From an uncultured Phycisphaeraceae bacterium (GTDB lineage Bacteria; Planctomycetota; Phycisphaerae; UBA1845): a stretch of DNA of 64,000 nt. The notes under the pieces are model-generated. The model did no database searches, was not told the DNA's origin, and saw only the letters and a program-made list of their open reading frames with translations. A program made the translations under genes and the position numbers. Positions 4,301 to 35,471 of this stretch are shown here, piece by piece. The stretch covers positions 21,145-85,144 of the forward strand of contig CAZGJA010000042.1 of assembly GCA_964526695.1 (NCBI GenBank). The letters are read 5' to 3'. Position 1 is the first letter of the stretch. Every line of letters starts with the position of its first letter.

Positions 4301-4494
4301 TCGGCACAGGAGCGGGTTCGGAGTCACGCCAACCCATGGCCGTCGCCGTCATTGGCGGACTGACGACATCGACGTTGCTGACGCTCGTCGTCGTTCCTGC
4401 CGTCTACACGATTATGGACGACTTGGCACACCCGGCCCGCTGGCGGTTCGTGCAGTGGCTCCGGCGACGTCGCCCCGCACAGGTGCCGGTGTGA
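1393..4494 (+). CDS. AcrB/AcrD/AcrF-family RND permease
   Basis: [11 protein letters not shown] start (TGATG overlap), [11 protein letters not shown] and [22 protein letters not shown] motifs; about 1033 aa. Confidence 0.96.
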
Positions 4495-10366: not shown

Positions 10367-10935
10367 GGAGAATGGCCGCTCAACCAGGACGCGAGCAACG
10401 CTTTGGCCAGCGCCCATTTCTTAGCGATGGCTCTCGGCGAAAGCTCCATCATGGTCGCGACCTCGTCAACTGTCAGCCCCCCAAAAAACCGCAGCTCGAC
10501 GATTCTGGCGAGTTCCTGGTCCAGCGCCTCAAGCTTCTTCAGCGCCTCATGGACGTCGATGATGTCGGCTTCGACACGGCCATCGGTCGCAGGCTCCGCA
10601 CGGAGCTGGACCGTAATCTGACCGTTGCCACGCTTCTGGCAGCCGTGGCCCTTGGCATGGTCGATTAGGACGCGCCGAATGGTCCCGGCGGCGGCGGCGA
10701 AGAAGTGGGTCCGGTCGCGCCAGCGGATGTCGGTCAACTCGGACAGGCGCAAGTAGGCTTCGTTGACCAGCGCGGTAGGTTGGAGCGTGTGGTTCCGCCG
10801 TTCCGCTGCCATGAAGCCCAAGGCCAACTCGCGGAGCTGTTCGTACAGAACGCGCCCAAGTTCCGGATCGCCAAGCACTTGCGCTCCGGCCTCGAACGAC
10901 GCCGGGTGTCCCTGCTGCCTGCCTTCGCGCTCCAC
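10363..10935 (-). CDS. Planctomycete-type ECF sigma factor
   Basis: HTLQPTALVNEAYLRL, HFFAAAAGTIRRVLIDHA, IVELRFFGGLT...W..AKA motifs. Confidence 0.93.
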   Translation of the reverse strand: MEREGRQQGHPASFEAGAQVLGDPELGRVLYEQLRELALGFMAAERRNHTLQPTALVNEAYLRLSELTDIRWRDRTHFFAAAAGTIRRVLIDHAKGHGCQKRGNGQITVQLRAEPATDGRVEADIIDVHEALKKLEALDQELARIVELRFFGGLTVDEVATMMELSPRAIAKKWALAKALLASWLSGHSP

Positions 10936-14851: not shown

Positions 14852-15091
14852 TCAGGACTTTTCCTGCGAGCGTTCGCAGATCCACGTGTGGGCCAGGTCG
14901 GCGACCTTGGCGGCGACCAGCAAGTCGTCGCGTCCGAACGTGTCGGACTGCTCCCAGTTGTCGCCATCTTTGTAGAGCCGGCGAAGCTGCACGTTGTGCC
15001 GCACGCCGCCCTCCACCTCGTTGGCCCAGATCACGGCCTTGATGCGGCCGAGCCGCACTTCGTGAACGGGTTTGTCCTTTTCCTTCGGCAT
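14852..15091 (-). CDS. Small SSB/PC4-like protein, copy 2
   Basis: AAGGAG RBS; KPVHEVRLGRIKAVIWAN...RLYKDGDNW...FGRDDLL...AHTWI; strong identity to copy 1. Confidence 0.75.
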   Translation of the reverse strand: MPKEKDKPVHEVRLGRIKAVIWANEVEGGVRHNVQLRRLYKDGDNWEQSDTFGRDDLLVAAKVADLAHTWICERSQEKS

Positions 15092-15116
15092 GGTGATTTC
15101 TCCTTTGCCTTCGGTT

Positions 15117-15233
15117 TCAGAATCCACTTGATACACACTCATAACGCTCCTCGTCGATTACTCGCTCCGTTCGCGTCGTGCGTCGCATGACGTTGCCGCC
15201 CTGCTCGGCGCCGCGTGCGGAGCCTTCGTTCAT
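15117..15233 (-). CDS. Possible 38-aa peptide
   Basis: AGGAGGT RBS before ATG 15233; MNEGSARG...CVSSGF; immediately upstream of SSB-like copy 2. Confidence 0.3.
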   Translation of the reverse strand: MNEGSARGAEQGGNVMRRTTRTERVIDEERYECVSSGF

Positions 15234-15876
15234 CCTGGCTGTCACCTCCTCTCTGCAACCTGCGCAGCATGCCACTCCCTCCGGCTCGGCGCGCACAGGC
15301 GGCGTCGCGACGAAGGAAACGGAACTCAGCGTTACCGGGATGCAGGACCGCGAAGCGCGGTCGTTGGGAAAGAACAGCTTGCGGCGCGACCGTAGCACGT
15401 TTCGGGCGCACGGGTCAAGCGGCGCTGCCCGTCTGGTGCCGCCTGCCATGCCCACCTTCATCATAAGCGTGACGGGTCGCGTCTGCACGAACCGAGTCAC
15501 CTGCCCCCCCGGCAGTCCGCTGCGGTCCGCGATCGCCTGGGACACCTGGGCGGCAACCGCCAGCACCCGTTGCCGCCCCTGCACCGGGTCTGCCGTATAA
15601 AGCCGTCGTCGTCGGGTCCTCGCCCCGTCGAGGCCGTCAGGCCCTTGGGACCCGACGAGGACGGCTACGGCAGACCCAGTGCTGCGCCACCCTGAATCCA
15701 GTCCCCACCCACCCTGCCGGTAATGCCTGAGTCCGAGGGTTCCTCGATTCCACGCCGCTTTGCACCGGTCGCACGAGCGCCTCCGACCCGCCCCTGAGAA
15801 CAGGCTTGTTGCCTGGATTTTTCTTCGCGCCGCCATCGCGGATGGATAGAATGTAGCAACCGCCGTTCCCGGCGCG

Positions 15877-15974
15877 GCTCTTTGACAACCGCAGAGCGCC
15901 GTCCCCAAACGAGTTCAACCCCTTCGCGGGTTTACTGGCCCCCTCTCCTGCCGGGGCCTTACAAATTCCGCAGG
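15877..15974 (+). ncRNA. Structured leader element copy 3 (boxA-like site, hairpin, H-type pseudoknot)
   Basis: GCTCTTTGACAAC at 15877; AACCC-CTTCGC-GGGTT; stems GGCCCC 15937-42/GGGGCC 15953-58 and CCTGC 15947-51/GCAGG 15970-74; covaries with the copies at 29.0 and 29.6 kb. Confidence 0.65.
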
Positions 15975-16129
15975 AAACAAAGCGGCTCCATCGGAGTCGG
16001 TCGCGGGCCAAGCGGCTCCTGACTTCATTTACGAAGGGCAACATCCTATCCCATTAGCGCTCTCCTGCCCTTGAGCGAGAGAGCGGTGATGTAGGAGGAG
16101 GATGAGGCAACCTGTAAGTGAAATAGGAG

Positions 16130-16438
16130 ATGAAGCATATGCTTTGGTTATTGCGATTGCTACTCATAGGACCCGAGTCGTTCAAGGTTCCCCGACGCCA
16201 GCCGACTTCCGTCGATACGCCGGTGGGCGACCGTCAACCGACGGACGCCTTCACCAACGGACGGATGAAGCTGCGGGTGTGGAAGAACTACGACAAGCGT
16301 GGCGAAGTCTTTTACAACTTCGACCTGGTCCGACAGGTGGAGCATGGCCGGCACGCAAAGTCTTTCCAGTTGCAAGACCTGGAACCGGCAGTGGAATGCT
16401 TGAAGCGGGCGCTTGCCTGGGATCGAGACCGTAAGTAG
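16130..16438 (+). CDS. Divergent SSB/PC4-like protein, copy 3
   Basis: C-terminal half FTNGRMKLRVWKN..GEVFYNFDLVR...KSFQLQDL...ALAW aligns by eye to copies 1 and 2; start 16130 or 16139. Confidence 0.55.
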   Translation: MKHMLWLLRLLLIGPESFKVPRRQPTSVDTPVGDRQPTDAFTNGRMKLRVWKNYDKRGEVFYNFDLVRQVEHGRHAKSFQLQDLEPAVECLKRALAWDRDRK

Positions 16439-16445
16439 CCGGACT

Positions 16446-16476
16446 GTGTAGGAGCTAACCCTCCTACACTTTTTTT
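16446..16476 (+). terminator. Intrinsic terminator
   Basis: GTGTAGGAG-CTAACC-CTCCTACAC followed by T7. Confidence 0.85.
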
Positions 16477-16505: not shown

Positions 16506-17738
16506 TCAGGGATAAAATAGCCCCATGTCGCGCCAGATCGGTGCAAGCTGCTGAAACTCCTCGAACAGCTTGCGGTACTGGTCCCAGTCCGCGTCGGTCT
16601 TGGGATAGGGTGTGGTCCACAAGGGTCGGTCGTTCTTCTGATACTGCTGGATGTAGGCAAATCCCTTGGCGCTCTTGGCTTTGCCACAACCCGCAGAGAC
16701 GAAGGTCTGGAGGTCGGTGGTGATGCCGAGCTTGACCAACGTGTTGTACGACGTCATTTCTGAGGGGCCGTCGATGAACATCATTCGCTGACTCGTCTCG
16801 CCGTGACCGAATCGCCAGCGTCCCTTGGCCAGGAAGGGCTGATACTTGGCCTGAACGGCCGGGTCTTCCGCCAGCTTGCGGTTGCGCGCCAGGTCGATTC
16901 CGGCTTTCTGTTGCTCCGCCTCGGCCTTGACCTTCTCGGCCTCAGCCTTGGCCAGCTCTTCGGTCTTCTTGTCGCGCTCGGCGCGGATCGCGGCCTCGAT
17001 CCGCTCGGTTCGCTCGCGGGCGAGCTTCTCATCGAAATCGGCCATCGCGTCCGACAGAGTGGTCGGCCCAGGCGCGTTCGGGGCTTCACGGGCGAGTAGC
17101 TCGATGGAGCGGCGGGTGTCGGCGTAGGCTTTAATCGCGGCCTTCAGCGCCCAATCTTCTCGGTCCAGGTGACCCGTCCAGTCCTGCGACGGCGCGTAGT
17201 CGCCCGTGTCTTCCTTGATGGCGGCCTCGACCGGCTCGAACAGCAGGCGTAGCTTCTCCTTGGACGCGGACACCTGGTCCGGCGTCCAAAGTGCTTCCTG
17301 TCGATAGAGCCCGGCGAACTTCTCGACTCGTTCGGGTTCGACGGCGATTCTGCGGCCGCGTTCGTCGGTGAGCAGCACGCGAACCTCTCGGTCCCATGCG
17401 GCGAGTTGTGCCTCCACCTCGGCCAGCGTCGAGCGGACGCCTTCGATTTTCTGCCGGGCCGCCTGGAGCTTCAGACGATTCAGGGTTCGGCGCTCGCGGT
17501 CCACGGATTCGACAATTGAGTTCTCATTCGGAAGGACGGTCGATTCGCCCGCGCTCGTTAGCCCCGACGTGCCTCCTGCATTGACGAGCGCAGATTCGGT
17601 CGGTTTGGCGATGGACATGAACGAGCGCACAGTGAGCACCACGATGCCTGTCCCCAAGACGATGCAGGCGAAGATCATGACGTGGAGTCCAGAAACGTAC
17701 TCGCCCAGAATGCGGCCAAATTGTTTATTGGGATTCAC
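16506..17738 (-). CDS. Membrane-anchored coiled-coil protein, last gene of the transfer operon
   Basis: Single N-terminal TM (VMIFACIVLGTGIVVLTV), long E/K/A-rich helices; ATGA overlap with the VirD4-like gene. Confidence 0.8.
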   Translation of the reverse strand: MNPNKQFGRILGEYVSGLHVMIFACIVLGTGIVVLTVRSFMSIAKPTESALVNAGGTSGLTSAGESTVLPNENSIVESVDRERRTLNRLKLQAARQKIEGVRSTLAEVEAQLAAWDREVRVLLTDERGRRIAVEPERVEKFAGLYRQEALWTPDQVSASKEKLRLLFEPVEAAIKEDTGDYAPSQDWTGHLDREDWALKAAIKAYADTRRSIELLAREAPNAPGPTTLSDAMADFDEKLARERTERIEAAIRAERDKKTEELAKAEAEKVKAEAEQQKAGIDLARNRKLAEDPAVQAKYQPFLAKGRWRFGHGETSQRMMFIDGPSEMTSYNTLVKLGITTDLQTFVSAGCGKAKSAKGFAYIQQYQKNDRPLWTTPYPKTDADWDQYRKLFEEFQQLAPIWRDMGLFYP

Positions 17739-20700
17739 TCCGGCGGCTCCTTACTTGCAAACAGGTTATCCAAACGCTCTTCCAAGTCATCCTTCTGTTC
17801 CGGCGGCGCCGGCGGTTTGGGCGCCGCAGGGGGTCTTGCGGAGGCGGCCGTACCCGCCGATGCCGCTGAAGCTCGGGGAGGCGGAATGGCAGCGGGGGCC
17901 GACTCGCGCGGCGGAACGTAGGTTCCGGGTTGTCGGCCGGGCCAGGATGCGGCCGAGCGCCGCTCATACTCGTCCTGGGAAATATGAAAGTCGGAAAACA
18001 CGGGGAACAGTCGTCCGCCAAACTGTGTCCAGCCGCGGCCGCGGGTAATCTGGACGAGGCTGTGCTGCTCGCGATCGCTGAAGCTGATCACATCGTCACG
18101 GCGGATGCGGGGGCCGTATTGTTCGCTGAGCGAGAAGCTCTCGCCGCCGATGCGGGAAGTGGTCCAGCCGTAGGTGGCGGAATACCGCGATTGCTCGCCG
18201 GAGCCGAGGCTGAGCATCTCCTGAGCCGCGAGGTCGCTGGCAGAGAATACCTGGCGCAGCCGCGTATTGGCCTGAACAGTGGGAATCAAGTTGATGTTCT
18301 CGTTCTTTTTCAGGTCGCTTAGGGTCTGGTTGGCTAGGATCACGGAGATTCCGTGCGAGCGCGCCTGGCGAAGCACGATCTCGATGTTTGTGGAGACTAC
18401 CTGCTGGAACTCATCGACGAAGACGTACACCTGGTGGTTGGACTTGCCGCGATGCACGGCCGCAGTTAGCAGCGAGTGCAGGGCGAGCTTCGCCGTTTCG
18501 CGTGCGGACGATTCCTCCAGCGGCGCGGAGAGATAAAAATACACGACGTGCGGTCGTCGCACGACCGCGGACATGTCAATTTGATAGCGGATTACTTCGG
18601 GGTTCGGGGCGGATTCGGCGGTGATGTTGAGCGCGTGATTCGCAGCGAGCAGATCCACAACCGTGTACAGGTGCGTTCCTTCCTCGTGTTGGCGTTTTTC
18701 AATGTTGAGTTCCTTCCGCCGCGGGCGTAGATCAACGGCGAAGTATCTGCTAAGGTCGCGGAACGAACTGATGCGTTGGTCCTCCCGCAGCACCTTGACG
18801 AGCGTGTCGCGGTGGATGGCCGAAAAGTAAGAGGGTCCGAATCCCTCCCCGTAGTCGAGGCCCAGGGATTGCAGGAGGATAGAGGCCTTTTGTTGAATTG
18901 TCAGCTCCCTAAAATGACCTTGCAAGAAGGGGTTGAAGGCAAAGGTGTGTCTGCCTTGGTGGTTGGTATACCACTTGAAGCGAAGCATTTGTTTCTTGCG
19001 CTTGACCGCGCCGTTCACGTGATCGACGCGAATCCGCGCGGCTTCAAAGAGGGCGGCGTCGCCCTTGAGGTCAATGATCACGACCGACGTGTGTGGCAAC
19101 CCGATGAGTTGGGCGGCGAGGGGGGCGATTCCCAGGGCGGTCTTGCCCGACCCCGTGTCTCCGGTGATGTGGGCGTGTTCGTGCAGGATGCGTCGGTCCA
19201 TGAGAATGGGATAGTCCACCACTGGGTTGCAACCAAAAAAGAGGTGGTCGCATTCACGCACTGGGCGGCCTTTTGAATCCATGACTCGGAAGCGGGACTG
19301 GCGGAGCCGGTCCACGTAAGCTTCCCAGCGAGATAGCTGAGGAACCCGCTGATACGCGCCCGGCGCGCGAGCAGTGCCTTCGAGCGTGCGCGCGTGATGA
19401 AGCAAGCGGCGGGCCCCCAAGGCGAAGGAGGTGGAGAGAAGGAAAACGCCGATGGCGGCGTAGCAGGCAAACACCGAGGCCGTCATGCTGAAGAAGAAAA
19501 ACGTCTCGCCGCGGGTCATCCCCTGGAGCGTGGAGAGCAGGTAGCCTTCGTAAGACTGCAATCGGACGGCTGCAGCGCGACGACGCGCGTTCCGTTCCTC
19601 TGTCGCCAGCCGGGCCTTGACATATGCCTCCCGCTGCGATTGGGGGATATGCTTGAGTACCTGCTCGGGAACGCGGACGTTGGATTGGGAACTCGGGCGA
19701 TTGGCGGGGTTATCGAACTCCTCGCTCATCACCCACGACCGCGCTCCGGCGTCAATCCACGGGCCGTTGCCGTAGAACAGAACGGGGATCGGGAAGTAAG
19801 CGCAGACCGGAACGAGCGCCAAGGCAAGCATGAGGGAAATGTAATAGGTCGTGATGAAGCGCCGGCGCATCGATCCGGCGGGGCTCTGGAACACGCCTGG
19901 CGCAACCGTCTGCTTGTAGTTGTAGGAAAACCATGAGGACCATGCGTCATAGACAATTCGGCAAACCTCGATCCAGGTCGCATCCGGATACAGCCGGTGT
20001 GCCTGATGCGCGCCGTAGATGAGCAAGGCGGTGATGTAGACCAGCAGACCCGCCAAGCCACTGAAGAATGGGCCTGGTACCAGCATGGCGGTGAGGGTCG
20101 CCGCCAGCAGGGCGACCAGCACGAATGCCAGCGCGACGTAGTAGTGCTGGAGTTCGCGTCGCTCGGGTGCGAGCAGTGCGAGGGAAGGGTCATCAACTGG
20201 GGGAGCAGCGGGAGCCTCGGCAGCAGCGACTTCACGTTTGGGAGCGCCGGCCGCGGCGCGAAGCGACGCCGACGGAGAGGCGAACGCTCGCAACGTGCCG
20301 CGAAGCGTGGCATGCATCCACACGGAGCGCCAACGCATGCGCGTGGGTCGGTCGAGTTGGGGATGGGCGTGCATCCACATGGCCCGGTGGGTGACGACGG
20401 AGTGGGCGAGTTGGATGGCAAGGGCGCCCGCGATGAGCCAAAGGACGACGTGAAGCCCCGCCGTAGTCACGACGCTGAGCAACCACAGGGCCGGGCCGAG
20501 AATGCTCCAGCCAATAAGTGCCGCTCGGGGGACGCCGTTGAGATACAGGGATACTACGTGCAACGTCATGAGCAAGGCGACGACGGAGAGGAAGAGTGAG
20601 GTGGCGGTGCTTTCGGCGACCGCTCGAACGGCGAAGGCCACGAGGGCTCCGACGCCGCCCGTGGCCAGGAAGAACCGCAGCGTGGCATGACGCGCTTCCT

Positions 20701-20806
20701 TGTCGGTGGCGTCGGTCGTGCGGTAGTCCAGCTCCATCCCGGCCGTCGGTGGGAGTAGGTCCGGAGCGAGTCCGTCATACGGGTTTTCGTGTTCAGGCGC
20801 CAGCAC
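17735..20806 (-). CDS. VirD4/TraG/TraD-like coupling ATPase with large multi-TM N-terminus
   Basis: Walker A GDTGSGKT, IIDLKGD, Walker B VFVDEFQ, QARSHGISVILANQTLSDL; many hydrophobic segments in the first about 460 aa; likely GTG start 20806 with GGAG RBS. Confidence 0.88.
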   Translation of the reverse strand: MLAPEHENPYDGLAPDLLPPTAGMELDYRTTDATDKEARHATLRFFLATGGVGALVAFAVRAVAESTATSLFLSVVALLMTLHVVSLYLNGVPRAALIGWSILGPALWLLSVVTTAGLHVVLWLIAGALAIQLAHSVVTHRAMWMHAHPQLDRPTRMRWRSVWMHATLRGTLRAFASPSASLRAAAGAPKREVAAAEAPAAPPVDDPSLALLAPERRELQHYYVALAFVLVALLAATLTAMLVPGPFFSGLAGLLVYITALLIYGAHQAHRLYPDATWIEVCRIVYDAWSSWFSYNYKQTVAPGVFQSPAGSMRRRFITTYYISLMLALALVPVCAYFPIPVLFYGNGPWIDAGARSWVMSEEFDNPANRPSSQSNVRVPEQVLKHIPQSQREAYVKARLATEERNARRRAAAVRLQSYEGYLLSTLQGMTRGETFFFFSMTASVFACYAAIGVFLLSTSFALGARRLLHHARTLEGTARAPGAYQRVPQLSRWEAYVDRLRQSRFRVMDSKGRPVRECDHLFFGCNPVVDYPILMDRRILHEHAHITGDTGSGKTALGIAPLAAQLIGLPHTSVVIIDLKGDAALFEAARIRVDHVNGAVKRKKQMLRFKWYTNHQGRHTFAFNPFLQGHFRELTIQQKASILLQSLGLDYGEGFGPSYFSAIHRDTLVKVLREDQRISSFRDLSRYFAVDLRPRRKELNIEKRQHEEGTHLYTVVDLLAANHALNITAESAPNPEVIRYQIDMSAVVRRPHVVYFYLSAPLEESSARETAKLALHSLLTAAVHRGKSNHQVYVFVDEFQQVVSTNIEIVLRQARSHGISVILANQTLSDLKKNENINLIPTVQANTRLRQVFSASDLAAQEMLSLGSGEQSRYSATYGWTTSRIGGESFSLSEQYGPRIRRDDVISFSDREQHSLVQITRGRGWTQFGGRLFPVFSDFHISQDEYERRSAASWPGRQPGTYVPPRESAPAAIPPPRASAASAGTAASARPPAAPKPPAPPEQKDDLEERLDNLFASKEPPE

Positions 20807-21518
20807 GGCGTTGCTCCGCGGGGAGCAGCTCCCCGATCTCCTGGACAAAGGCGTAGCGGAACTGCACCTCCTTGTGCAAGTCCTCCACGTAGCGCGCGAT
20901 CTGCTTGATCCGCGCTTCGCGGATGGTCACGATGGTGATGACGAAGCGGCCCTTGCGGATGATGCTGTGTTTCCAGCTTTCGCGATGAAGCCGCTCGCTG
21001 ATGAGCGTGCGCACCCGGTCCCGGATGCGTCGTAGCGGGCGCCGCGTATCGATCAACAGGTAGCCCAGCCGCCCGCGCTCACCGTCCTTGTCGAGATAAT
21101 ACTCCTCCGGGATTTGCCTGCCGATGACCAACTCGGGGAACTTCTCCCGGAACTGTCGAGGGCTGAGCTTCGGGTGAATCTGCTCGCCCAGGCAGCAGAA
21201 AGCGAGCATGCCGTACACCTGGGCCAGGCGAACCGGCGACCGAAACCCCTCGCTTCCCGCCTCAAGTTGGAACTCGGTCACGGCGGCATGGGTCGGGTAG
21301 TAGTAGTTCAGGCTGCCGTAAAGCGGGGCGTCGCCCAGGTAGCCCGCCTCCCGCATCCGCCGCACCCAACTCTTGGCGGCGTGGATGGTCTCGCCGGGCC
21401 AGTAGACGCGGCGGACGGCCTCATAGGTCGTCATGCGGAAGCAGCCGACGTGGTCGCGGAGTATCTCGGCGTCACGGTCGGTCAGGCGCACCTTGCGGGA
21501 TTTCGCTTCATCTACCAT
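20793..21518 (-). CDS. Replic_Relax-like protein 2 (degenerate nuclease motifs)
   Basis: RLTDRDAEIL winged-helix start, ..WVRRMREAGYL; lacks the HDL and PDA motifs of its neighbour. Confidence 0.6.
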   Translation of the reverse strand: MVDEAKSRKVRLTDRDAEILRDHVGCFRMTTYEAVRRVYWPGETIHAAKSWVRRMREAGYLGDAPLYGSLNYYYPTHAAVTEFQLEAGSEGFRSPVRLAQVYGMLAFCCLGEQIHPKLSPRQFREKFPELVIGRQIPEEYYLDKDGERGRLGYLLIDTRRPLRRIRDRVRTLISERLHRESWKHSIIRKGRFVITIVTIREARIKQIARYVEDLHKEVQFRYAFVQEIGELLPAEQRRAGA

Positions 21519-27200: not shown

Positions 27201-28595
27201 ATGAACTCGATAAGACAATCGACCGCCCTGGCGACGGCGATGAGCCGGATGCCGGGCGGCTATCGTCGCATGGACGTGAATCATCTTTTGGCCGTCTGGC
27301 ACGCCTACCGCACGGAAAAGCGCATTCGTTTCGTGGACTTCCGCGTCTACCTGGCGCTGCACGAGATGGCCGAGCGGCGTCGAGCCGGACGCCGCAGCAA
27401 AGCGCGTCGACGGAAATCGACGCTTCCACCAAAGCGGAACCTGAGCGGAATCGTGTTGGAATGTGCCCGATTGCTGCGGGTGCGAGACTCCCGCGTCGCG
27501 TCCGGCGCCATACAGCGGCTGGCGCGTGCGGGGTTGATTTCGATTTCAGAGCATTCGATTCGACTCAAGGGGCAAGGACCCGCATCGCTAGAGCAAGACT
27601 CAAGGACCGGTTTGGCCGGTCGGAATGTGTCGCGCCGGACGATGGCAGTTCCGCGCCGAGTGCTTCGGCATCTGGCTGGCGGAGAGACCGTCAGTCGCAC
27701 CGCGACCATGCTGGGACACTTGCTACGCTGCGTATTCCATCATCGCGGTTCAGGCTGGAACTCGGTGGGGTCGTGCTCGATTCGGTTTGTGGCCGAACTG
27801 TTCGGCGTGGACGCCCGAAGCGTCAAACGCGCGCGTCGGAGGCTGGTGGACGAGGGTTGGCTGAAGCCGGAGTCGGCGGACCATTGGCACGTGCAGGCGC
27901 AGGGCGCTCGGGTGAAGGTCAACCTATCCTGGTTCCCCGGTCCGCAGGAACCACTTCTAGACGTCAACGCGGCCGGAATGTCACCCCGGCCACCCGGTTT
28001 CGCGTGCCCGTTGTCACCCCCAGGATCAAAACGCACGCTTCCCCTGGTACTTCAGAACCACACACCCGCGTTTCCGCGGGGTGTTGGTGTTTGGACCGAT
28101 GGGCCGGCTGAGGATCCACCGCGATTGGCGGATGTCCGTCTCTGCGACCTTGTGGAAGCGGATCGCCTGCAACTGCTCTGCCAGGAAGCGTGCGCGCGCG
28201 GCTGGATTCGGTCCAGCGAGCACGACACGTTGCGCGTGTTCTCCGCCGCTGCACACGCTCGAAGGGTCGGGCGCACCAACCCGTGTGGCTTGTTCGTAGT
28301 AGTCCTGCGGCGCGGGTTGTGGATGTACCTGAGCAACGATGACGATGACACCGGGCGGGCTCTGTTCCGATCGCTGAAAGACCCACGCCTGGTCGGTCCT
28401 GCGAATCGTCCGCGGGGTGCCGCACACTCGCGCGAACTCGGTCGCGAACCTGAGGAAATCCGCGGGGTAAACAACCTTGCGGCGTCCCTCGCGAGGGCAT
28501 TCACAATGCCGGGAAGCACTGCACGACGAACCGAAAGGGGAGCGCGACCTGTGTTCGCCGTAGCTCGGCTCCGTCGCGAATTGGCTTCGCGATGA
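27201..28595 (+). CDS. Putative replication initiator (two wHTH-like regions)
   Basis: DFRVYLALHEM; SIRFVAELFGVDARSVKRARRRLVDEGWL HTH; divergent from parA. The ORF is well supported; its function is inferred. Confidence 0.5.
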   Translation: MNSIRQSTALATAMSRMPGGYRRMDVNHLLAVWHAYRTEKRIRFVDFRVYLALHEMAERRRAGRRSKARRRKSTLPPKRNLSGIVLECARLLRVRDSRVASGAIQRLARAGLISISEHSIRLKGQGPASLEQDSRTGLAGRNVSRRTMAVPRRVLRHLAGGETVSRTATMLGHLLRCVFHHRGSGWNSVGSCSIRFVAELFGVDARSVKRARRRLVDEGWLKPESADHWHVQAQGARVKVNLSWFPGPQEPLLDVNAAGMSPRPPGFACPLSPPGSKRTLPLVLQNHTPAFPRGVGVWTDGPAEDPPRLADVRLCDLVEADRLQLLCQEACARGWIRSSEHDTLRVFSAAAHARRVGRTNPCGLFVVVLRRGLWMYLSNDDDDTGRALFRSLKDPRLVGPANRPRGAAHSRELGREPEEIRGVNNLAASLARAFTMPGSTARRTERGARPVFAVARLRRELASR

Positions 28596-28635: not shown

Positions 28636-28676
28636 AAAAAAAGGCCCCTTGGGGGGCTAATGAGACCTCCCAAGGG
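28636..28676 (-). terminator. Intrinsic terminator of unit 1
   Basis: Minus strand: CCCTTGGGAGG..CCCCCCAAGGGG-CC-T7. Confidence 0.8.
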
Positions 28677-28698
28677 AACCTGCGTTTGCGAGTTCGAG

Positions 28699-28881
28699 TT
28701 ACAGTCCACCTGTTCTGATTCGCTCTAAGAGCACCAGACCCACGGCGAACCCGATCCCGATCAGAAACGCGGAGAACCAAAACAGCACGAACACGTGTGT
28801 GATTCTCCAAATGATCAGGTTCAGCACTGACTTCACCACCGATTTCTCGTTCCTCTGCATACGCTTTCTGTCTCTTTTCAT
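28699..28881 (-). CDS. 60-aa single-TM glycine-zipper peptide A
   Basis: GAGAGG RBS; basic N-terminus, F39-G42-G44-G48-L51 helix; ungapped homologue of 29256-29438. Confidence 0.7.
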   Translation of the reverse strand: MKRDRKRMQRNEKSVVKSVLNLIIWRITHVFVLFWFSAFLIGIGFAVGLVLLERIRTGGL

Positions 28882-29043
28882 ACGTCCTCTCTCAAGGTTT
28901 TTTCAGTTAATAAGAAAACCAGAAAAACCGTTCATCAACCTTCGCAGATGAGCTGCGTGAGCAGCCCATCGGCCAAGTGGTAAACAGAGAGGTCAGACAT
29001 CGACGTCGTCAGAAGAGGCAAAGTCCCTTGCTGGTTGCGCAAA

Positions 29044-29122
29044 CGCGCCGGTCGAATGTTTGAGAGCCCGGACCGGTAAGGGGCTCATGCAAACCCACGA
29101 AGGGGTTGCGCCGTGACGCGAC
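29044..29122 (-). ncRNA. Structured leader element copy 1 (hairpin, H-type pseudoknot)
   Basis: Sense: GCAACCCC-UUCG-UGGGUUUGC then GAGCCC/GGGCUC crossed by CCGGUC/GACCGG; 73 of 75 nt identical to copy 2. Confidence 0.7.
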
Positions 29123-29202
29123 GGACGGCTCGTATTTGGCCTGGCCGCCGCGAAATCTCGCCGAGAAGCAACGCTGCAGGCTGCGATGCCTCGTGTTTCC
29201 GC

Positions 29203-29240
29203 AAAAGTGCCCTTGGGGGGCTAATGGGACCCCCCAAGGG
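29203..29240 (-). terminator. Intrinsic terminator of unit 2
   Basis: Minus strand: CCCTTGGGGGG-TCCCATTAG-CCCCCCAAGGG-CAC-T4; homologous to the unit 1 terminator. Confidence 0.7.
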
Positions 29241-29255
29241 AATTGCGTTGTCGGT

Positions 29256-29438
29256 CTACATGCAACCGTTCCAGATGGTTACTGCGAGCAGTATCCCTGT
29301 CGTAAGTCCAAGACCCGCTGTGAAGCCGGCAGCGAAAATCTTGAAGAAATTCCTGACGGCTTCCTCCACGGCGAATTGCACTTCGAGAGGCACCCGATCT
29401 GTAGTCAAACGCTTCATGTCATCCATTATGTTTCTCAT
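29256..29438 (-). CDS. 60-aa single-TM glycine-zipper peptide B
   Basis: GGAG RBS before ATG 29438 gives exactly 60 aa; M8,R10,V16,F31,F39,G42,G44,G48,L51,I55,G58 identical to peptide A. Confidence 0.7.
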   Translation of the reverse strand: MRNIMDDMKRLTTDRVPLEVQFAVEEAVRNFFKIFAAGFTAGLGLTTGILLAVTIWNGCM

Positions 29439-29593
29439 AATACGCTCCATTTGTTTCAAGTTAATAAACAACCATCAACCGCTCATCCACCTCACAGATA
29501 GGCTGCAAAATGCAGCCCATCGGCCAAGCGATGAACATGGAGCACAGACAGTGGCGTGAACGATGGTCAGGTGACCTCATGGTGCAGACCGCA

Positions 29594-29723
29594 ACGCCCG
29601 GTCGAATGTTTGAGAGCCCGGACCGGTGAGGGGCTCATGCAAACCCACGAAGGGGTTGCTCCGTGACGCGACTCGGAGGCCGGCTTCCGCCGCCCGGTCG
29701 CGGTATTTCGTTGACAAAGAGCA
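29594..29723 (-). ncRNA. Structured leader element copy 2 with upstream boxA-like site
   Basis: Same motif 550 nt from copy 1; TGCTCTTTGTCAAC at 29723-29710. Confidence 0.7.
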
Positions 29724-30371
29724 TGCCGGCCGGCAGCGGTCCCACGGACGGCCCACGGCCCGGCCCTCCATTGTATGCACGCCTGATGGGCAAGGGTACG
29801 CCACCGGGGCGGCGTGGCCGTCGTTTTTGGCGATCGCTGGCCGGGAATCCGTCTGAGCCGCCCGCCAAGGTCTGAATCCGGGCGCGACGGTGGACGCCAA
29901 CGGAATCCTCCGGAAAGCCGCTTTGCACCGCCCCGCGGCTCCGGCTATCTCCCGGTCGTGCGAAAAAACCGCCTGGGGCCAATACGGCAATCTGGGTAGC
30001 TTTGGGTGAATGGTCACGAGTTAAGTGCGGAAGACTTTCCCTGTCCGGGCCGTCGCCCTTCCCCGCGAGCCCGGCCCGGAAGCCGGGTGCCGCCGGGCCT
30101 GGGAGCGATGCAGTCCCGTCCAATCGCGGGATTTGCCGTTGCCGTAGCGAACCCTCGGCTCGCCCGTGAAGCCGTAAGTGCCTTGCGGCAAAAGAGGTTC
30201 GGGATTCGGCCTGCGGCTCGGGACCCTGTCGGCCGTCGCTGGCCCGGAGACGAGCGAAGCGAGCCGGCGGCGGTCGATAGGGTGAGGCGCGGGCACCCCG
30301 CCTGCGGAGGGGCTCCCGGAGGCCCGAGCGTGCAGGCTTCTTGCTTCCGAGGTGCCGAGGTGGACGTCCAG

Positions 30372-31771
30372 CTACGTGTCGTCTGGGGCGTTCGTGGGGC
30401 GTTTCTGAGGCGTTTGAGGCGTTTGTGAGGCGTTTAGCACGTAGTGCGTGGCCCGGCCGGTCCGACCCCGCCGGCGGAGCAGTTGGCGGGAGACGAGTTC
30501 GTCCAGGCAACGTGACGCCGTCTGCCGGGACACGCCGAGCAATTGCTGAACCTGCTGGTTGGTCACGCGCGGCTGTTGCTTGGCGAGCAGAACGACGCGA
30601 ACCCGGTCGTCGGTAAGCCCCATCGCGCGTAGTTGCTCGGGCGTGAACCGATCCTTGGCGAAGACGACCTGGAAGCCGCCCGATTCCTCGGCGAAGCGTG
30701 GTTCCGGGAGGCCCTGCTCGCGACACAGCTCGCGCATCCGCGTCGTGCCCGTGCCCCAGCCTAAATAAGCTCAGCAAAGAAGAACATGCGGGCCAGCAGC
30801 GGATTCCGCGGCTGAGAGGAGTGCCGCTCCTTCAACAGGTCTGCCAACGTAATTCCTTCGGGAAGGGGGCCGGGGTTCCAGAAATCGACGCGGTCTTCTT
30901 CGACGCGGATCTGGATGTCGCCCAAGGCCGTGTAATCCCGATGGATGAGTGCGTTGATCGTGGCCTCACGCAGGGCATCGAGCGGGTACTCCCAGGTCTC
31001 GCGGCGTTGAATACCCTCGACGGTCATTGCGGTGGACTTGACTTCGGAGCGCAGCGCGAGGTAGCTGCGGAAGGCCTCCAGCACGCCATCGAGCTGCTGC
31101 CAGAGGTTGCCGGTGATCAGCCGGTCGTCCAGCGTGACTCCGTTCTTGAAGTGACCGATGTGGACCTGACCCGACGTGGCGACATGCTCCGGGTGCTTTC
31201 CGAACAACATCACCGCGGCCTTCGTGACTACGCCGTCGCGAAGCAGCCGAAGGTTTGTGAGTGCCTCCCGTGGATCATCGCTTTCGCTGAGCTTGGGGAG
31301 GCGTTTGGCGGCCAAACGGACGAACCGGCGAAACGCGTCGAGGTCGAGCGAACTGAAAGGAAGATCGGTGGGCAGCGCGTCCCACGTTTCGCCCAGTTTC
31401 GACATGAGCCGACGGCCGACCTGGTCCGGCGTCATGTCGCGGTTCGTGCTGCCGACGCGGGTCAGGTACCGGCCGCGGTACGCGGTCGGGACAGTAGTCG
31501 GCTCGACGCATAAGCACAGGACGGGCTTGCGGCCACGCAGCTCGATGCGGATGGCTGGTCGCAGGCCGAGCGCTTGAACGACCTGGTTGGCAATGCGCTG
31601 CTGCTCGGCGTCGTTGCCCGACCAGCCTACGACCTGCGCGTCATCGTTGACTCCGACATGTACCGTGCCGCCCTTGTGGTTCGCGAAGGCGGCGAGCGTT
31701 TCCAGCGCGGAGTCAGTCCAGCGCTCCTTGAACTCGACCGTTTCGCCTTCCTTCGGTTTCAAGCGGGCCAT
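30372..31771 (-). pseudogene. Disrupted Schlafen/AlbA_2-RecG_C-wHTH ATP-binding protein
   Basis: EGETVEFKE..AFAN.KGG, EATINALIHRDY, RNPLLA; reads ATT TAG GC TGG GGC ACG (expected I-E-A-W-G-T-G): stop at 30761-63 plus 1-nt frameshift. Confidence 0.8.
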
Positions 31772-31894: not shown

Positions 31895-32362
31895 TCAAAT
31901 CCCGATCAGAACGGCCAGAATAGCGAACGCAAGGAAAACCATGTTCGCACCTGCGATGCGGCGAGGGGGAATGTCTCGCGCAATCAGCACACCGTTGATG
32001 ACCAGGAACGCGACTGCAACCAGGTGCCACACCTGCCAAGTTCCAAAAGGTGGAAGTGGCCGGCACAATGACGCCTCGAGACCCCACCAAGACATGTCAA
32101 TCGAGTCGAGGGCTGCGGCGGCGGACGAGGACGCAAAGTAAGACAGAAAGCCGAGCACGACGAACGCGATTCCGACAGCAGCGAGCGAAAGGCGTCGTCG
32201 AAGTAGGCCCCACAGCATACCGAACAGTCCGACGAGCAGGAGCCCGGAGCGCGCCAGCGCGATGTACTCCTGCTGGTTGGCGGCGGCGACCGCCAGCCAG
32301 AGCGCGATCGGCGCGACGAGAATGGCTGCGAGAAAGATGAGAACGCGGGTCACGTTGTTCAT
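31895..32362 (-). CDS. Multi-pass membrane protein
   Basis: About 5 hydrophobic segments; ATGA overlap with the AAA gene. Confidence 0.75.
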   Translation of the reverse strand: MNNVTRVLIFLAAILVAPIALWLAVAAANQQEYIALARSGLLLVGLFGMLWGLLRRRLSLAAVGIAFVVLGFLSYFASSSAAAALDSIDMSWWGLEASLCRPLPPFGTWQVWHLVAVAFLVINGVLIARDIPPRRIAGANMVFLAFAILAVLIGI

Positions 32363-33756
32363 TGGATCCCTCCCGGAGCGGTCGAGGGGTTCACCCCGGC
32401 GCGCGCGTTAGCATGGGGGAGTTCGATCGGGACGCAGGTGAGCGGCGGACCGGCACAAACGCGTACAGGGCTTCCGGATGCACCTGCCTCGACGAGGGCA
32501 TTACCGAGAATCGCATCGATGGCGTATTCGTACGGCCGGGCACCGAAGACCTGACTCCTGGTGTGCTCCAGGATGCGAACAATCACGGCCGGTTCGATGT
32601 ACGCAACGTTGACCCCGTACTCCTGGGCAACCGCATGAACGGCAGACGCTGCGATTTCAGTCAAGGCGTTGGTGGAGAGCGGCCTAAATACGAAGAAGCG
32701 GTTGATTCGCCCGACGAGTTCTGGCGCGATGCCAGCGGCCCGGACGTGGCTACGGCAAACCTCATCTGTACGGACACTGTCATCGAAGGACTCGGTTCGA
32801 GCAAGTTCAGCGACGATGCCGTCTGAGTCCAAGTTGGCTGTGAAGATGAAGATAGCGCGCCGGCAATCGACTTCGCGCGTGCCGGTCGCAGTGCGCGACG
32901 GACTGGAGAGTCGGCCGGCGTCCATCGCGTTCATCAGGGTCTGAAGGATGGTGGGATGCGCTTTCTCTATTTCATCGAAGAGGACGACGCGCCGGGGATT
33001 GACTGCGAGGTCGTCAACTAGTTGCGCGCCTTCGCCGTGGCCGACATATCCCTGCGGAGCCCCAAGGAGCTGACTCCGGCGATGGGACTCGCCGTATTCT
33101 GACATGTCCAACCGGGTATACGAGTAGCCGATTTTCCGGGGATCAAGAGTCTGAATGACCTTGGACACGAGCGCGGCCGTACGAGTCTTTCCGACGCCTG
33201 TTGGCCCTGCGAACCAGCACGTGCATGGCCGGCGCGGGTCGATGCGGGCGACGTGGCGGCATACCTGTTCGGCCAACGGGCGCAGCACGTGGTCCTGACC
33301 GAATACATGGCGGCGGAGCTCTTCCGCGAAGCGGCTGGAGTCGACATGCGGGGCACTGTGAGTTCCTGCCTGGACAGCCTGTAACTGTTGGATCGTCGAC
33401 AGATCCGTTAGCTGCGCGACTGCCGGCGCGGAGGAATCCGGTTGACCGGCGTCAGCCGGGTAGACAGGCGCAAGGTCCGAAACGATCCACTCACGCAGGG
33501 CATGGAAATGTGGAAAACGCTTCTCTCCTCTGCTCAACCATCGCCGCAACTCGCGGTTCTGTCCCGTGTAGCGCACGCCGGTCTGGACGTAAAGGATCGC
33601 CGCCCGCGATCCGGCGTCTACCTCGAACCCGACGTGCGCATGGGACGGCTGGCATCCTGGGGGCATGCACTGGTCTCGAAATCGAATACAATGCGCAGAA
33701 GCCCTCCGCTCCAGTTGAGCCCACGCGTCGTCGCTGCCGTGGATGAATTGGTGCAT
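32359..33756 (-). CDS. ClpB/ClpA D2-type single-ring AAA+ ATPase with unknown N-domain
   Basis: GPTGVGKT, LDMSEY, pore loop GYVG, VVLFDEIEKAHP, PELVGRI, GARP; GAGGAG RBS. Confidence 0.92.
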   Translation of the reverse strand: MHQFIHGSDDAWAQLERRASAHCIRFRDQCMPPGCQPSHAHVGFEVDAGSRAAILYVQTGVRYTGQNRELRRWLSRGEKRFPHFHALREWIVSDLAPVYPADAGQPDSSAPAVAQLTDLSTIQQLQAVQAGTHSAPHVDSSRFAEELRRHVFGQDHVLRPLAEQVCRHVARIDPRRPCTCWFAGPTGVGKTRTAALVSKVIQTLDPRKIGYSYTRLDMSEYGESHRRSQLLGAPQGYVGHGEGAQLVDDLAVNPRRVVLFDEIEKAHPTILQTLMNAMDAGRLSSPSRTATGTREVDCRRAIFIFTANLDSDGIVAELARTESFDDSVRTDEVCRSHVRAAGIAPELVGRINRFFVFRPLSTNALTEIAASAVHAVAQEYGVNVAYIEPAVIVRILEHTRSQVFGARPYEYAIDAILGNALVEAGASGSPVRVCAGPPLTCVPIELPHANARAGVNPSTAPGGIQ

Positions 33757-33770
33757 GTCAAACTCCTCAA

Positions 33771-35471
33771 TCAGGGCCTGGGCGAGGGACGCATCAGACG
33801 CGTATCTGCAAACGTGCCAGCAGCATTACGAAGGTCACCAGTACCAGAGCAGTCCGGGCACACCGGCCGGGTAGGTGATTGCCCAGCATCCGGCGCCTGT
33901 GCCAGGAACAGAGTATCCAGCATGACGAAGCTGCCTGCGTCGGCGGCGCCCGCGATCCGCCTTCCAAATGTGTTGCCGAATGTAACGTCGAAGTTCGGAT
34001 CCATTCTGATACGCAACAGGTTGCGTGAACCGAGCATGGTCACCATGTTTCCCCAGCGTGGGTGGTCCGTGCTGTGGTGCGTGACGGCAAGCAGAACATG
34101 GCCGAGAATCGCGTTGAGCATTTCCGCGGCGAAGATGGGTGCGCCAGTTGAGCTTACCGTGTTGCGATAACCGTTCTCGTACGCCGCGTAGCGCGACGAT
34201 GTGATGCAGCGATGGCACGCAGGTGACACGCCCGGGATCGTGTACGTGACTTCCGCTCCGCGCCCTTCTACGTACTCTTGGGCACAGATGGTCGGCAGCC
34301 CGAAGTGCAGACCCAGCCGGTGCCCACGGGCGTTTGCCTCGAAGTTGTCAGTCAGGACCAGTAGAATCCACAATCGCGGAAGGCTTACCGCCCCCGTCGA
34401 CTCCGCCCGCATTGGCTGGCGGAGTAGGACTTCAAACGTCTCGTCGTCAATTGCTTCGATAGGTTCGGAGACAGCCAGCGCTGCCGATGCGGGATTGAGA
34501 CGTACCACATCCGCGGCCAGCGCCTCCGCCTTGGGCTTCCCGATAGCTTCGGGTTCGGCCTGCTGAGAAAAGATGTTGGCCGCAGTAACTTCGTCGGGAT
34601 CGACGAGCACTACCTCGCCATACCCCATCCGTGCGCAGTTGCGAACGAGCGAGGCTGCGCCGCCCACCCCGATCACGATGAGCCGGGTGGCGTCCAAGAG
34701 CTCCAGGTCGCAAGCAGAACCGAGCCGAGTAAGGTACTGGTCCCTCTTGGCCACGGCGTTGGCCTGGGCGGCGATCTCGTCGGTGGTAGCGGGCTGCGTA
34801 GTCACGCATTTCGGCCCAGCGCTGAGTCGCGCCCCGGGTTCCAGGGAGGCGAAGTTCCCATAGTACTTATGGCGAAGCGTCGGACGCAGTTCTCCGGGGC
34901 TTTCTTTGAGGCGTGGGAGAGTTGGAGCGGGGCTCTTCATCTCGGACGCCACGATAATGGGCTGCCGTGCGGACCCATCCGGCCCGCCATCGACAACGCG
35001 CAGCCGTCCTTTGACGATGTTGCAGCGTGAGCGATCCGTCGGGCTTGGGACCGCTGCGTACGTCAGGACCTGGAAGGCGCCGCTGTCGACCGTCGTCATA
35101 ACGATCGGGAGCCACAGCAGCTCAAGTTTCTTGAAGCACCTGAGTATCTGACCGGCATACCACTCGTCGTATCCCGACGGGCGCCGGACGCCGGCCGGAT
35201 GGCTATGCGCAAAGCCGCAGAACTCGATCCCGCTGACCTTCCATTCCTTGATGACGCGATTGAGCGACCCAATGTCCGGATCATACGCGGCGGCGCTGCA
35301 CCGGCCGTTCTTATCCGCCTCGAAGCTGCAAATGTAGCCATCCGGTCCGCGTCCGAGCATGCCGCCACGTTCTGCGCGGTGCTGGCCGATGAAGGCGCGG
35401 ATCTGTCCGAGCACGTTTTTTGACATCCGTAGGGTTGGGGCCGTTGTCGCATTGTTCTGATTTGTCACCAC
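33771..35471 (-). CDS. JAB/MPN+ isopeptidase fused to ThiF/E1-like adenylation domain
   Basis: ERGGMLG plus exact JAMM H-x-H-x7-S-x2-D (HSHPAGVRRPSGYD); VIGVGG, VDPDEV, GKPKA, TDN, Zn motifs CHRC and CPDC; AGGAGG RBS, GTG start. Confidence 0.9.
   Translation of the reverse strand: MVTNQNNATTAPTLRMSKNVLGQIRAFIGQHRAERGGMLGRGPDGYICSFEADKNGRCSAAAYDPDIGSLNRVIKEWKVSGIEFCGFAHSHPAGVRRPSGYDEWYAGQILRCFKKLELLWLPIVMTTVDSGAFQVLTYAAVPSPTDRSRCNIVKGRLRVVDGGPDGSARQPIIVASEMKSPAPTLPRLKESPGELRPTLRHKYYGNFASLEPGARLSAGPKCVTTQPATTDEIAAQANAVAKRDQYLTRLGSACDLELLDATRLIVIGVGGAASLVRNCARMGYGEVVLVDPDEVTAANIFSQQAEPEAIGKPKAEALAADVVRLNPASAALAVSEPIEAIDDETFEVLLRQPMRAESTGAVSLPRLWILLVLTDNFEANARGHRLGLHFGLPTICAQEYVEGRGAEVTYTIPGVSPACHRCITSSRYAAYENGYRNTVSSTGAPIFAAEMLNAILGHVLLAVTHHSTDHPRWGNMVTMLGSRNLLRIRMDPNFDVTFGNTFGRRIAGAADAGSFVMLDTLFLAQAPDAGQSPTRPVCPDCSGTGDLRNAAGTFADTRLMRPSPRP

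Follow-up and report, generated by a model that had tools for sequence, protein, structure and literature searches.

Type I toxin-like systems are, to our knowledge, known almost only from Proteobacteria and Firmicutes, and a full-text search of the literature returned no report of a type I toxin-antitoxin (TA) system in Planctomycetes. The closest described designs are hok/sok (parB of plasmid R1), tisB/istR-1 of E. coli and timP/timR (RyfA), with zorO also cited among them. In tisB, a 5' pseudoknot acting about 100 nt away on a sequestered ribosome-binding site (RBS) is essential for toxin translation (PMC7708055). Translation of timP needs a pseudoknot far upstream of a sequestered RBS; this mRNA was initially regarded as non-coding, and switching between conformations takes the place of enzymatic processing (PMC11228461). 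Here, we describe a module on the minus strand of a 64,000-nt stretch of DNA (the window) from an uncultured Phycisphaeraceae bacterium (contig CAZGJA010000042.1). It consists of two tandem units, A and B, each made of a structured leader, an open reading frame (ORF) for a 60-amino-acid peptide with a single transmembrane (TM) helix, and a terminator with a GC hairpin and a U-tract. We tentatively read it as a translationally locked membrane-toxin mRNA of the hok/tisB/timP kind that would serve plasmid maintenance or stress killing (probability roughly 0.45), because its lock, its predicted fold-back between leader and 3' end, its 5' pseudoknot, its small membrane peptide and its position next to rep and par match the type I design. 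The units and their ORFs are placed as follows.

Positions 28636-29172, minus strand: unit A.
Positions 28699-28881, minus strand: ORF of unit A, 60 amino acids, with a strongly basic N-terminus, a WRIxH motif, one TM helix containing GxGxxxG and a C-terminal RIRTGGL.
Positions 29203-29775 at least, minus strand: unit B.
Positions 29256-29438, minus strand: ORF of unit B, 60 amino acids, with an acidic amphipathic N-terminus, one TM helix with GxxxGxGxxxG and a 4-residue tail.

As in hok/sok, a plasmid module of about 0.55 kb stands beside maintenance and replication genes and encodes a small membrane peptide on what would be a long, very stable and compact mRNA, with an occluded RBS and, in several lineages, predicted fbi-like 5'-3' pairing. 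It differs from hok/sok in having no sequence, Rfam or Pfam similarity to it, no detected Sok-like antisense gene and no conserved overlapping mok-type frame; its TM helix is C-terminal, whereas that of Hok is N-terminal, and its host phylum is Planctomycetota. With tisB/istR-1 it has in common a long structured 5' untranslated region (UTR), a helix-sequestered RBS and a distant 5' pseudoknot of the standby type (PMC7708055). However, tisB is chromosomal, SOS-controlled and codes for a 29-residue peptide, and IstR-1 is encoded divergently upstream, while no such RNA was detected for the module. The likeness to timP/timR would lie in pseudoknot-dependent translation far upstream of a sequestered RBS (PMC11228461). 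There is no homology to timP and no TimR-like small RNA (sRNA) was found for the module, whose pseudoknot is predicted to pack into an H-type fold of about 40 nt, in contrast to the pairing between distant stem-loops in timP.

The original prediction of two leader-ORF-terminator units of about 550 bp holds, both being found on the minus strand with a start-to-start distance of 550-564 bp. The non-coding identity of up to 97% that it reported corresponds to a 78-nt leader core (29048-29125 in unit A, 29598-29675 in unit B) with two differences; both units also have a further conserved block and the terminator hairpin in common. The core motif and the terminator motif each occur exactly twice in the 64 kb and not at all in shuffled sequences. 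Beyond the core, the two leaders have diverged as far as the ORFs. The GC content is 0.38-0.45 across the Shine-Dalgarno (SD) and start region of both units, against 0.6-0.7 in the flanks. The extent first proposed (28636-29723) was too short, as unit B reaches a conserved TACAAT box at 29770-29775, although the units themselves were correctly recognized.

The two peptides align without gaps, as had been claimed, with 12 rather than 11 of the 60 residues identical (M1, M8, R10, V16, F31, F39, G42, G44, G48, L51, I55 and G58), and the nucleotide identity between the ORFs is 40%. Related loci and peptides are designated below by L and P numbers. The ratio of nonsynonymous to synonymous substitution rates (dN/dS) is 0.14 for A versus the distal unit of L007 (L007d), 0.17 for A versus L006, 0.20 for B versus L011 and 0.29 for L012 versus L019, values (0.14-0.30) that clearly point to purifying selection on the ORFs. 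RNA variants in metatranscriptome contigs differ at third codon positions in 4/4 cases for ORF A (soil) and in 9/11 cases for ORF B. Low dN/dS and this third-position bias together argue that the ORFs are real translated genes. The products of the family measure 57-69 amino acids, with one of 96, and each has one predicted TM helix near the C-terminus, hydrophobicity being judged from the sequence. A-type peptides combine a basic N-terminus, WRIxH, one TM helix and a C-terminal RIRTGGL; in peptide B and the 57-residue peptide C of L007, the N-terminus is acidic and amphipathic and the TM helix contains GxGxxxG. The glycine zipper (GxGxxxG) of the original prediction is thus present in A and B, but does not extend to the whole family: it is found in B, C, A, L007d, L006 and P0044, and the A-type peptides of L012 and L019 lack it.

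We derived the leader structure with RNAalifold and a hand-curated comparison of 11 copies. Its elements follow each other in the order TACAAT/TAGAAT box, GC-rich 5' hairpin, CUCUUUG, variable hairpin H0, hairpin H1 and H-type pseudoknot; the translational lock and the terminator lie further downstream. These features, including those of a third and divergent copy in the window (win3, described below), are located as follows.

Positions 29770-29775, minus strand: TACAAT box of unit B, a putative -10 element, at an equal distance from the ATG in unit B, L011, both L007 copies, L012, L013 and L019.
Positions about 29722-29765, minus strand: GC-rich 5' hairpin of unit B, preceding CUCUUUG.
Positions 29715-29721, minus strand: CUCUUUG motif of unit B, retained by every full-length copy, even the divergent L020 and win3.
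Positions 29642-29657, minus strand: hairpin H1 of unit B (AACCC/GGGUU), with 93% of cells paired.
Positions 29598-29636, minus strand: H-type pseudoknot of unit B; stem 1 is GAGCCC/GGGCUC, stem 2 is formed by the loop CCGGUC and GACCGG further downstream, and loop 3 is A-rich (UCAAACAUUC).
Positions 29585-29597, minus strand: 5' arm of the fold-back helix of unit B (GCGUUGCGGUCUG), pairing with 29245-29258, stop codon included.
Positions 29537-29543, minus strand: anti-SD GCUCCAU of unit B, predicted to pair with the SD at a probability of about 1.0.
Positions 29497-29521, minus strand: long hairpin H3 of unit B, inside the anti-SD:SD helix, with covariation at 5/10 stem pairs.
Positions 29424-29450, minus strand: SD AUGGAGC (29444-29450) and start-codon hairpin UAUUAUG..CAUAAUG of unit B.
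Positions 29203-29258, minus strand: 3' arm of the fold-back helix of unit B, followed by an 11-bp GC hairpin with only 4 U.
Positions 29092-29172, minus strand: truncated upstream leader and hairpin H1 of unit A, with a degenerate CUUCUCG and neither TACAAT box nor 5' hairpin.
Positions 29048-29086, minus strand: H-type pseudoknot of unit A, differing from that of unit B at one loop base only.
Positions 29038-29046, minus strand: 5' arm of the fold-back helix of unit A (GCGUUUGCG), forming a perfect 9-bp helix with 28682-28690.
Positions 28886-28992, minus strand: anti-SD CCUCUCU (28986-28992), H3 (28947-28970), H4 and SD GAGAGAGG (28886-28893) of unit A.
Positions 28636-28690, minus strand: 3' arm of the fold-back helix (28682-28690) and terminator of unit A, an 11-bp GC hairpin with U7.
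Stem 1 of the pseudoknot, variants compensatory between lineages: GAGCCC/GGGCUC, GAGCCU/AGGCUC and, in win3, GGCCCC/GGGGCC.
Stem 2 of the pseudoknot, variants compensatory between lineages: CCGGUC/GACCGG, CCGGCC/GGCUGG and, in win3, UCCUGC/GCAGGA.

The geometry of the module is kept across nine loci, with 329-340 nt from TACAAT to ATG in the seven copies that retain the box; the terminator begins 40-75 nt 3' of the stop codon, and the other distances in the leader are similarly uniform. A TTGCC-like hexamer is conserved 12 nt upstream of TACAAT (29770-29793, minus strand, in the window, and L007, L012 and L019); this spacing differs from the 17 nt of sigma-70 promoters and may represent an unusual promoter geometry in the lineage. 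The leader folds are more stable than those of shuffled sequences (z = -3.7 to -3.9). In the pseudoknot, both stems are 6 bp long, with loops of 2-4 nt (loop 1), 1 nt (loop 2) and 10-12 A-rich nt (loop 3). Its cells are paired at 92.8%, compared to 55-60% when the partners are slid by one column, in a test run on a model-derived alignment with some mis-registered rows, and its covariation score was reached by 0/500 shuffles.

Downstream of the pseudoknot, a CU-rich anti-SD is predicted to pair with the SD about 100 nt further on, with a probability of about 1 in 10/10 copies. The sequence of the H3 stem within this helix is wholly different in L012, L019 and L020. The AUG lies in a 5-8-bp hairpin with codons 4-6 in most copies, unit A being the exception, and this start-codon hairpin is retained with differing sequences in the rep-proximal unit of L007 (L007p), L007d, L012 and L019. 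A further helix folds the RNA back on itself, joining the segment 3' of the pseudoknot to the 3' UTR just past the stop codon (3' arm CGCAAACGC). It has 9 bp in unit A and L007d, a length reached by 1/2000 shuffles in a contiguous-helix test, and 8 bp of different sequence in L012/L013. It is interrupted in unit B and L007p, the helix of unit B alone not being beyond chance, and was not detected in L019, win3 or L020. RNAduplex energies of the fold-back helix were no better than those of shuffles, which leaves the contiguous-helix test as the only informative one.

Unit A directly adjoins the terminator of unit B, and its own terminator sits about 40 nt from the rep stop codon. The terminator hairpin stem of L006 carries a compensatory change (CCCUAGGG) relative to unit A. 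The U-tract of unit B has 4 U, against 7-10 U in the other copies with a complete terminator, a count that excludes L011, whose contig stops inside the hairpin. The unit A of this window no longer has a promoter of its own. It is probably expressed by read-through from unit B, since the U-tract of unit B is short and unit A lacks a promoter.

On the toxin-mRNA reading, each unit would by itself be a complete gene, encoding a small tail-anchored membrane peptide on an abundant, stable and translationally locked mRNA. Transcription would start just past TACAAT and yield a leader of about 325 nt that presents, in order, the 5' hairpin with CUCUUUG, H1, the compact pseudoknot and an anti-SD:SD helix spanning two hairpins. 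The start codon would be buried in a small hairpin, the segment after the pseudoknot would pair with the 3' UTR, and the strong terminator would stop the RNA ahead of rep. The lock may open only after processing or refolding of the RNA, or upon loss of a repressor, and the 5' pseudoknot could be a ribosome or S1 standby site, a repressor target, or both. Once made, the peptide may damage or depolarise the membrane, so that the module would act as a plasmid-maintenance or stress-triggered killing device of the ParA-Rep replicon. It would then be a possible new example of long-range pseudoknot-dependent translational control.

Other functions were considered for the leader core and rejected. A leader peptide or mok-type frame starting at the AUG of the core (CAUGAG) is not conserved, as this AUG is lost in L020 and win3 and a 2-nt indel shifts the frame in L012 and L019. 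No Rfam ribozyme model (hammerhead, HDV-like, hatchet, twister and others) matches the core, which speaks against a self-cleaving ribozyme. A fixed 5' end at GGG/UUUG, made by a ribozyme or by RNase E, was likewise discarded: adapters occur at many sites, contig ends are scattered, the win3 RNA is continuous through the equivalent site, and another cassette type reaches 29687.

The same leader architecture precedes other products, which bears on an alternative in which it is a sensing cis-regulatory element (riboswitch, thermosensor or protein-binding element) and the state of the pseudoknot gates harmless small plasmid proteins, such as entry or surface exclusion, membrane-stress or conjugation-accessory peptides. 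A complementarity search within the window led to the third copy:

Positions 15847-16476, plus strand: win3, third divergent member, with TAGAAT, CUCUUUG, H1, pseudoknot, anti-SD:SD pairing, a 99-residue ORF (16139-16438) and a terminator.

The win3 product is mostly hydrophilic, its N-terminus being hydrophobic. Its similarity to the product of a 96-residue ORF about 1 kb away (14852-15142, minus strand) is weak (28% over 65 amino acids, E = 6e-4), and neither of the two has a match in Pfam, PDB sequences or PHROGs. RNA from win3 (about 15868-16454) is found in sludge, soil and sediment metatranscriptomes, in contigs that start about 16 nt downstream of TAGAAT and end at the terminator, which supports the TAGAAT box as a promoter. 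In L001 (positions 1-700), the leader from promoter box to H3 lies beside an IS3-family OrfA gene and is followed by a GC-rich 189-residue ORF with no small peptide; this copy is probably rearranged or decaying. As win3 and L001 carry other ORFs, the leader would seem to be a general regulatory module rather than a toxin-specific one.

Several further observations suit a sensing leader. One architecture stands ahead of non-homologous ORFs (A-type, B/C-type and the 99-residue ORF of win3, and also in L001), the core is much more conserved than the remaining leader, the window encodes a type IV coupling protein, so that the element is probably conjugative, and the very high steady-state RNA level fits a harmless product more easily. 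The compact H-type geometry with its A-rich loop 3 is also typical of small aptamers: those of preQ1, SAM-II and guanidine-III span about 40 nt, with two 6-bp stems, a 1-nt loop 2 and an A-rich loop 3, as in the module. However, the module pseudoknot lies about 200 nt from the SD instead of overlapping it, and the gene context suggests no metabolite, no ligand-related genes being associated with the module. Rfam 15 gave 0 matches at the gathering score across the window and none to the leader even at E <= 10; the sole hit at E <= 10, mmgR (E = 3.2), is at chance level and falls on the terminator. There is also no tRNA- or tmRNA-like element. The downstream genes encode tiny uncharacterised proteins rather than transporters or enzymes, the combination of SD, AUG and 5'-3' locks is typical of toxin mRNAs, and the module is fixed in the rep/par backbone. 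We therefore consider a sensing leader possible but doubtful. Neither the RNA leader nor the peptide families are described in the libraries searched, and their significance depends on the reading: a toxin system would be a known design in a new phylum, and otherwise the pseudoknot leader would be a new cis-regulatory RNA class.

Several points weigh against the toxin-mRNA reading. The structures are predicted, and from 4-5 independent lineages only. The leader type also precedes the 99-residue ORF of win3, and no small ORF in L001. The peptides have no match to a Pfam, NCBIfam, PADLOC or PHROGs family, and hence no homology to toxin families such as Hok, Ldr, TisB, Fst, Ibs and Zor, nor did Rfam models such as those of sok and istR match; at 57-96 amino acids with a C-terminal TM helix, the peptides reach or exceed the largest sizes of classical type I toxins. 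No conserved antisense promoter or terminator was found among the copies, no complementary locus other than the third cassette was found in the 64-kb window (about 32 kb of the 96.6-kb source contig lies outside it), and no RNA from the upstream region was seen in metatranscriptome contigs, which are unstranded and come from libraries in which short RNAs are often lost. Contigs of the A and B RNAs stop at scattered core positions (29639-29687) and define no RNA end.

The antisense RNA that the original prediction proposed to look for was thus not seen, and one soil contig bearing both adapters points to the other strand: its read 1 lies on the plus strand, which in a dUTP library would imply sense (minus-strand) RNA. 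Two candidate antitoxins were examined and dismissed. A divergent sRNA promoter at a conserved TTGACA (complement of CUCUUUGUCAA) has no conserved -10 element or terminator and no RNA there, and the sole hit for a trans-acting complementary RNA in the window was the third cassette. The earlier proposal of a type I TA pair accordingly stands in part: small TM peptides under purifying selection, a 5' UTR that occludes SD and AUG, the pseudoknot, the fold-back helix predicted in several lineages, the place beside rep and parA and the abundant RNA are all as expected, but the defining antitoxin RNA was not found. Since, in addition, the toxicity of the peptides is only inferred, membership in type I TA is unproven. 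Entry-exclusion peptides, also put forward at the time, are possible, with no specific support.

In index searches, sequences about 95% identical to the cassettes turned up in many metatranscriptomes, from soil, rhizosphere, sediment, groundwater, ice and sludge. Over 7 kb of the window, RNA contigs cover the cassettes only, at word depths of 400-1070 in sludge runs, with none on rep or on the region upstream of the cassettes; a few short fragments (33-37 nt) on parA and downstream genes continue into unrelated sequence. The contig ends within the core are probably assembly breaks or short inserts, because they are scattered and adapters occur at many positions in library X22. In four sludge runs with 100-1000x coverage of unit B (X14, X15, X22 and X24), no contig spans 29692-29770; 5' processing, a different upstream sequence in the strains and an internal start are possible causes of this gap. 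In many metatranscriptomes of soil, sludge, sediment and groundwater, few plasmid features are covered as well as the module RNA, yet few peptide relatives are known.

Such abundance would also be expected if the RNA itself were the main product, dual-function or replication-linked and acting on replication, copy number or rep expression, with the ORF secondary. The module indeed lies between the convergent rep and iteron-like AAACGCCTCA repeats, and the non-coding core is its most conserved part. This explanation nevertheless appears distinctly unlikely: the ORFs show clear purifying selection, the strong terminator would halt the RNA short of rep, neither rep nor the iterons are complementary to the leader, and win3 and L020 are located away from rep.

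Relatives of the module are few. A scan of GTDB genomes returned a single matching contig (L001, a metagenome-assembled genome of Phycisphaera), and neither the PLSDB plasmid database, searched in near and distant modes, nor pattern scans of viral contigs gave a match; four hits of a metagenome pattern scan (L002-L005) were chance matches inside unrelated genes. At the peptide level, P0002 is 63% identical to A and P0042/P0043 are 83-92% identical to B, and when 1.8 billion representatives were searched exhaustively with a profile, only P0044 and P0045 came to light in addition. The relatives of peptide A are P0002, P0044, P0045 and the peptides of L012 and L019. Among the contigs of Rep homologues, six (L006, L007, L012, L013, L014 and L019) repeat the order ParA, Rep and convergent cassette. 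The gene that anchors this arrangement in the window is the rep-like gene with which the units had been predicted, correctly, to be convergent:

Positions 27201-28595, plus strand: gene for a Rep-like winged helix-turn-helix (wHTH) protein, which follows the ParA gene, is convergent with the cassettes and is not part of the module.

The place convergent with rep is kept on seven related replicons and, judging from this recurrence, the module is part of the ParA-Rep replicon backbone. The most divergent A-type unit, in L020, encodes a 96-residue product and adjoins AbiEii and GNAT genes. A covariance model of the core found no copies beyond the known ones in the window or in 16 loci. A weak covariance hit to the H1-pseudoknot core (13.7 bits, E = 0.05; L015 1508-1559 and L016 1957-2008, minus strand) falls between parA and rep on a more distant replicon without a cassette. 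A small ORF downstream of rep in L008 was rejected as an unrelated truncated gene. Three contigs with close Rep homologues, L009, L010 (end 5474) and L018 (end 3069), stop in or just before the cassette terminator, which suggests that the cassettes break short-read assemblies and that the plasmid family is under-recovered. The module would then be a marker of an under-sampled plasmid family whose assemblies tend to break there.

L007 is the only locus besides the window with two cassettes. Its rep-proximal unit has a B-like leader and encodes peptide C, and its distal unit is A-type, so that the order is rep-C-A, compared to rep-A-B in the window; the duplicated unit spans about 1.2 kb, degenerate iterons included. 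Conserved flanks around ORFs that match in length but are very divergent, together with this change of order, could be taken for a recombining array, integron-like or other, that swaps variable ORFs, and the diversifying cassette array of the original prediction was of this kind. Like integron cassettes, the module is a tandem series of short units whose non-coding parts are conserved and whose small ORFs are unrelated. Unlike them, it conserves a 5' leader with its own promoter and a terminator instead of a 3' attC site. No integrase lies beside the array, where the neighbors are ParA, Rep, wHTH and Schlafen-like genes (no whole-window intI scan was made). Moreover, outside the core the leaders are as diverged as the ORFs and the leader type tracks the ORF type, A-type leaders standing with A-type ORFs and B-like leaders with B/C ORFs, and the ~1.2-kb duplicated unit of L007 carries its degenerate iterons along. 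Since each unit type also has its own promoter and terminator, the units do not behave as interchangeable cassettes, and with the same pairing of lineages recurring on L007, the array hypothesis was abandoned as highly improbable. By these sequence comparisons, A and B are ancient paralogous lineages of one conserved module, not alleles or swapped cassettes.

The composition of the two-cassette plasmids suggests another arrangement, in which A and B/C form a two-component membrane pair, either a toxin with a protein antidote or a heteromeric pore, the basic A being neutralised by or partnered with the acidic B/C through the GxGxxxG helix face. Both plasmids combine one A-type with one B/C-type unit, in either order; the N-terminus of A is strongly basic while B and C are acidic; and GxGxxxG occurs in B, C and the A peptides that co-occur with them or are close to these, and is absent from the single-cassette L012 and L019. 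There are two co-occurrences only, however, the A-type unit stands alone in L012, L013/L014 and L019, and both units carry the same lock, which would not be expected of a constitutive antidote. Such a pair is in our view unlikely. A broader proposal, quite doubtful but less so, takes CUCUUUG, H1 and the pseudoknot as a cis-regulatory RNA of a new class, gating a locked RBS at a distance, and A with B/C as a new toxin-partner pair. If this were true, a standby or sensor element would serve several unrelated small proteins across a Planctomycetota plasmid family, and the phylum would gain its first described type I-like addiction system, whose RNA would rank among the most abundant plasmid transcripts of soil and sludge metatranscriptomes.

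Beyond the toxin-mRNA candidate itself, the surroundings of the module contain repeats that look like iterons and genes suggestive of defence and transfer functions, listed here from the repeats outwards.

Positions 30384-30434: tandem array of five to six repeats, each 10-11 nt long (AAACGCCTCA on the minus strand), situated some 600 nt upstream from the promoter of the cassette, a candidate origin of replication (oriV) or centromere that in the window overlaps the 3' end of the wHTH ORF; equivalent repeats lie at about 6300-6350 in L012, 3850-3900 in L013 and 2730-2790 in L019.
Positions 30372-31771, minus strand: ORF with Schlafen/AlbA_2 and HATPase_c_4 domains (336 amino acids), then a separate wHTH ORF of 121 amino acids; the two look like a split or two-part regulator or defence gene, with weak PADLOC similarity to pAgo-associated PNTD proteins.
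Positions 31895-35471, minus strand: likely defence island with a JAB plus E1/ThiF-like protein (566 amino acids), a Clp/AAA_2 ATPase (465 amino acids; DolB/PDC-M37B-like in PADLOC) and a multi-TM protein of 155 amino acids; a ThiF gene adjoins the cassette in L013 too.
Positions 17735-20848, minus strand: TrwB/TraG-type type IV coupling protein of 1037 amino acids, from which the probably conjugative nature of the element is deduced.
Positions 7826-10417: Ser/Thr kinase with TPR repeats.
Positions 1300-4494: AcrB-family pump.

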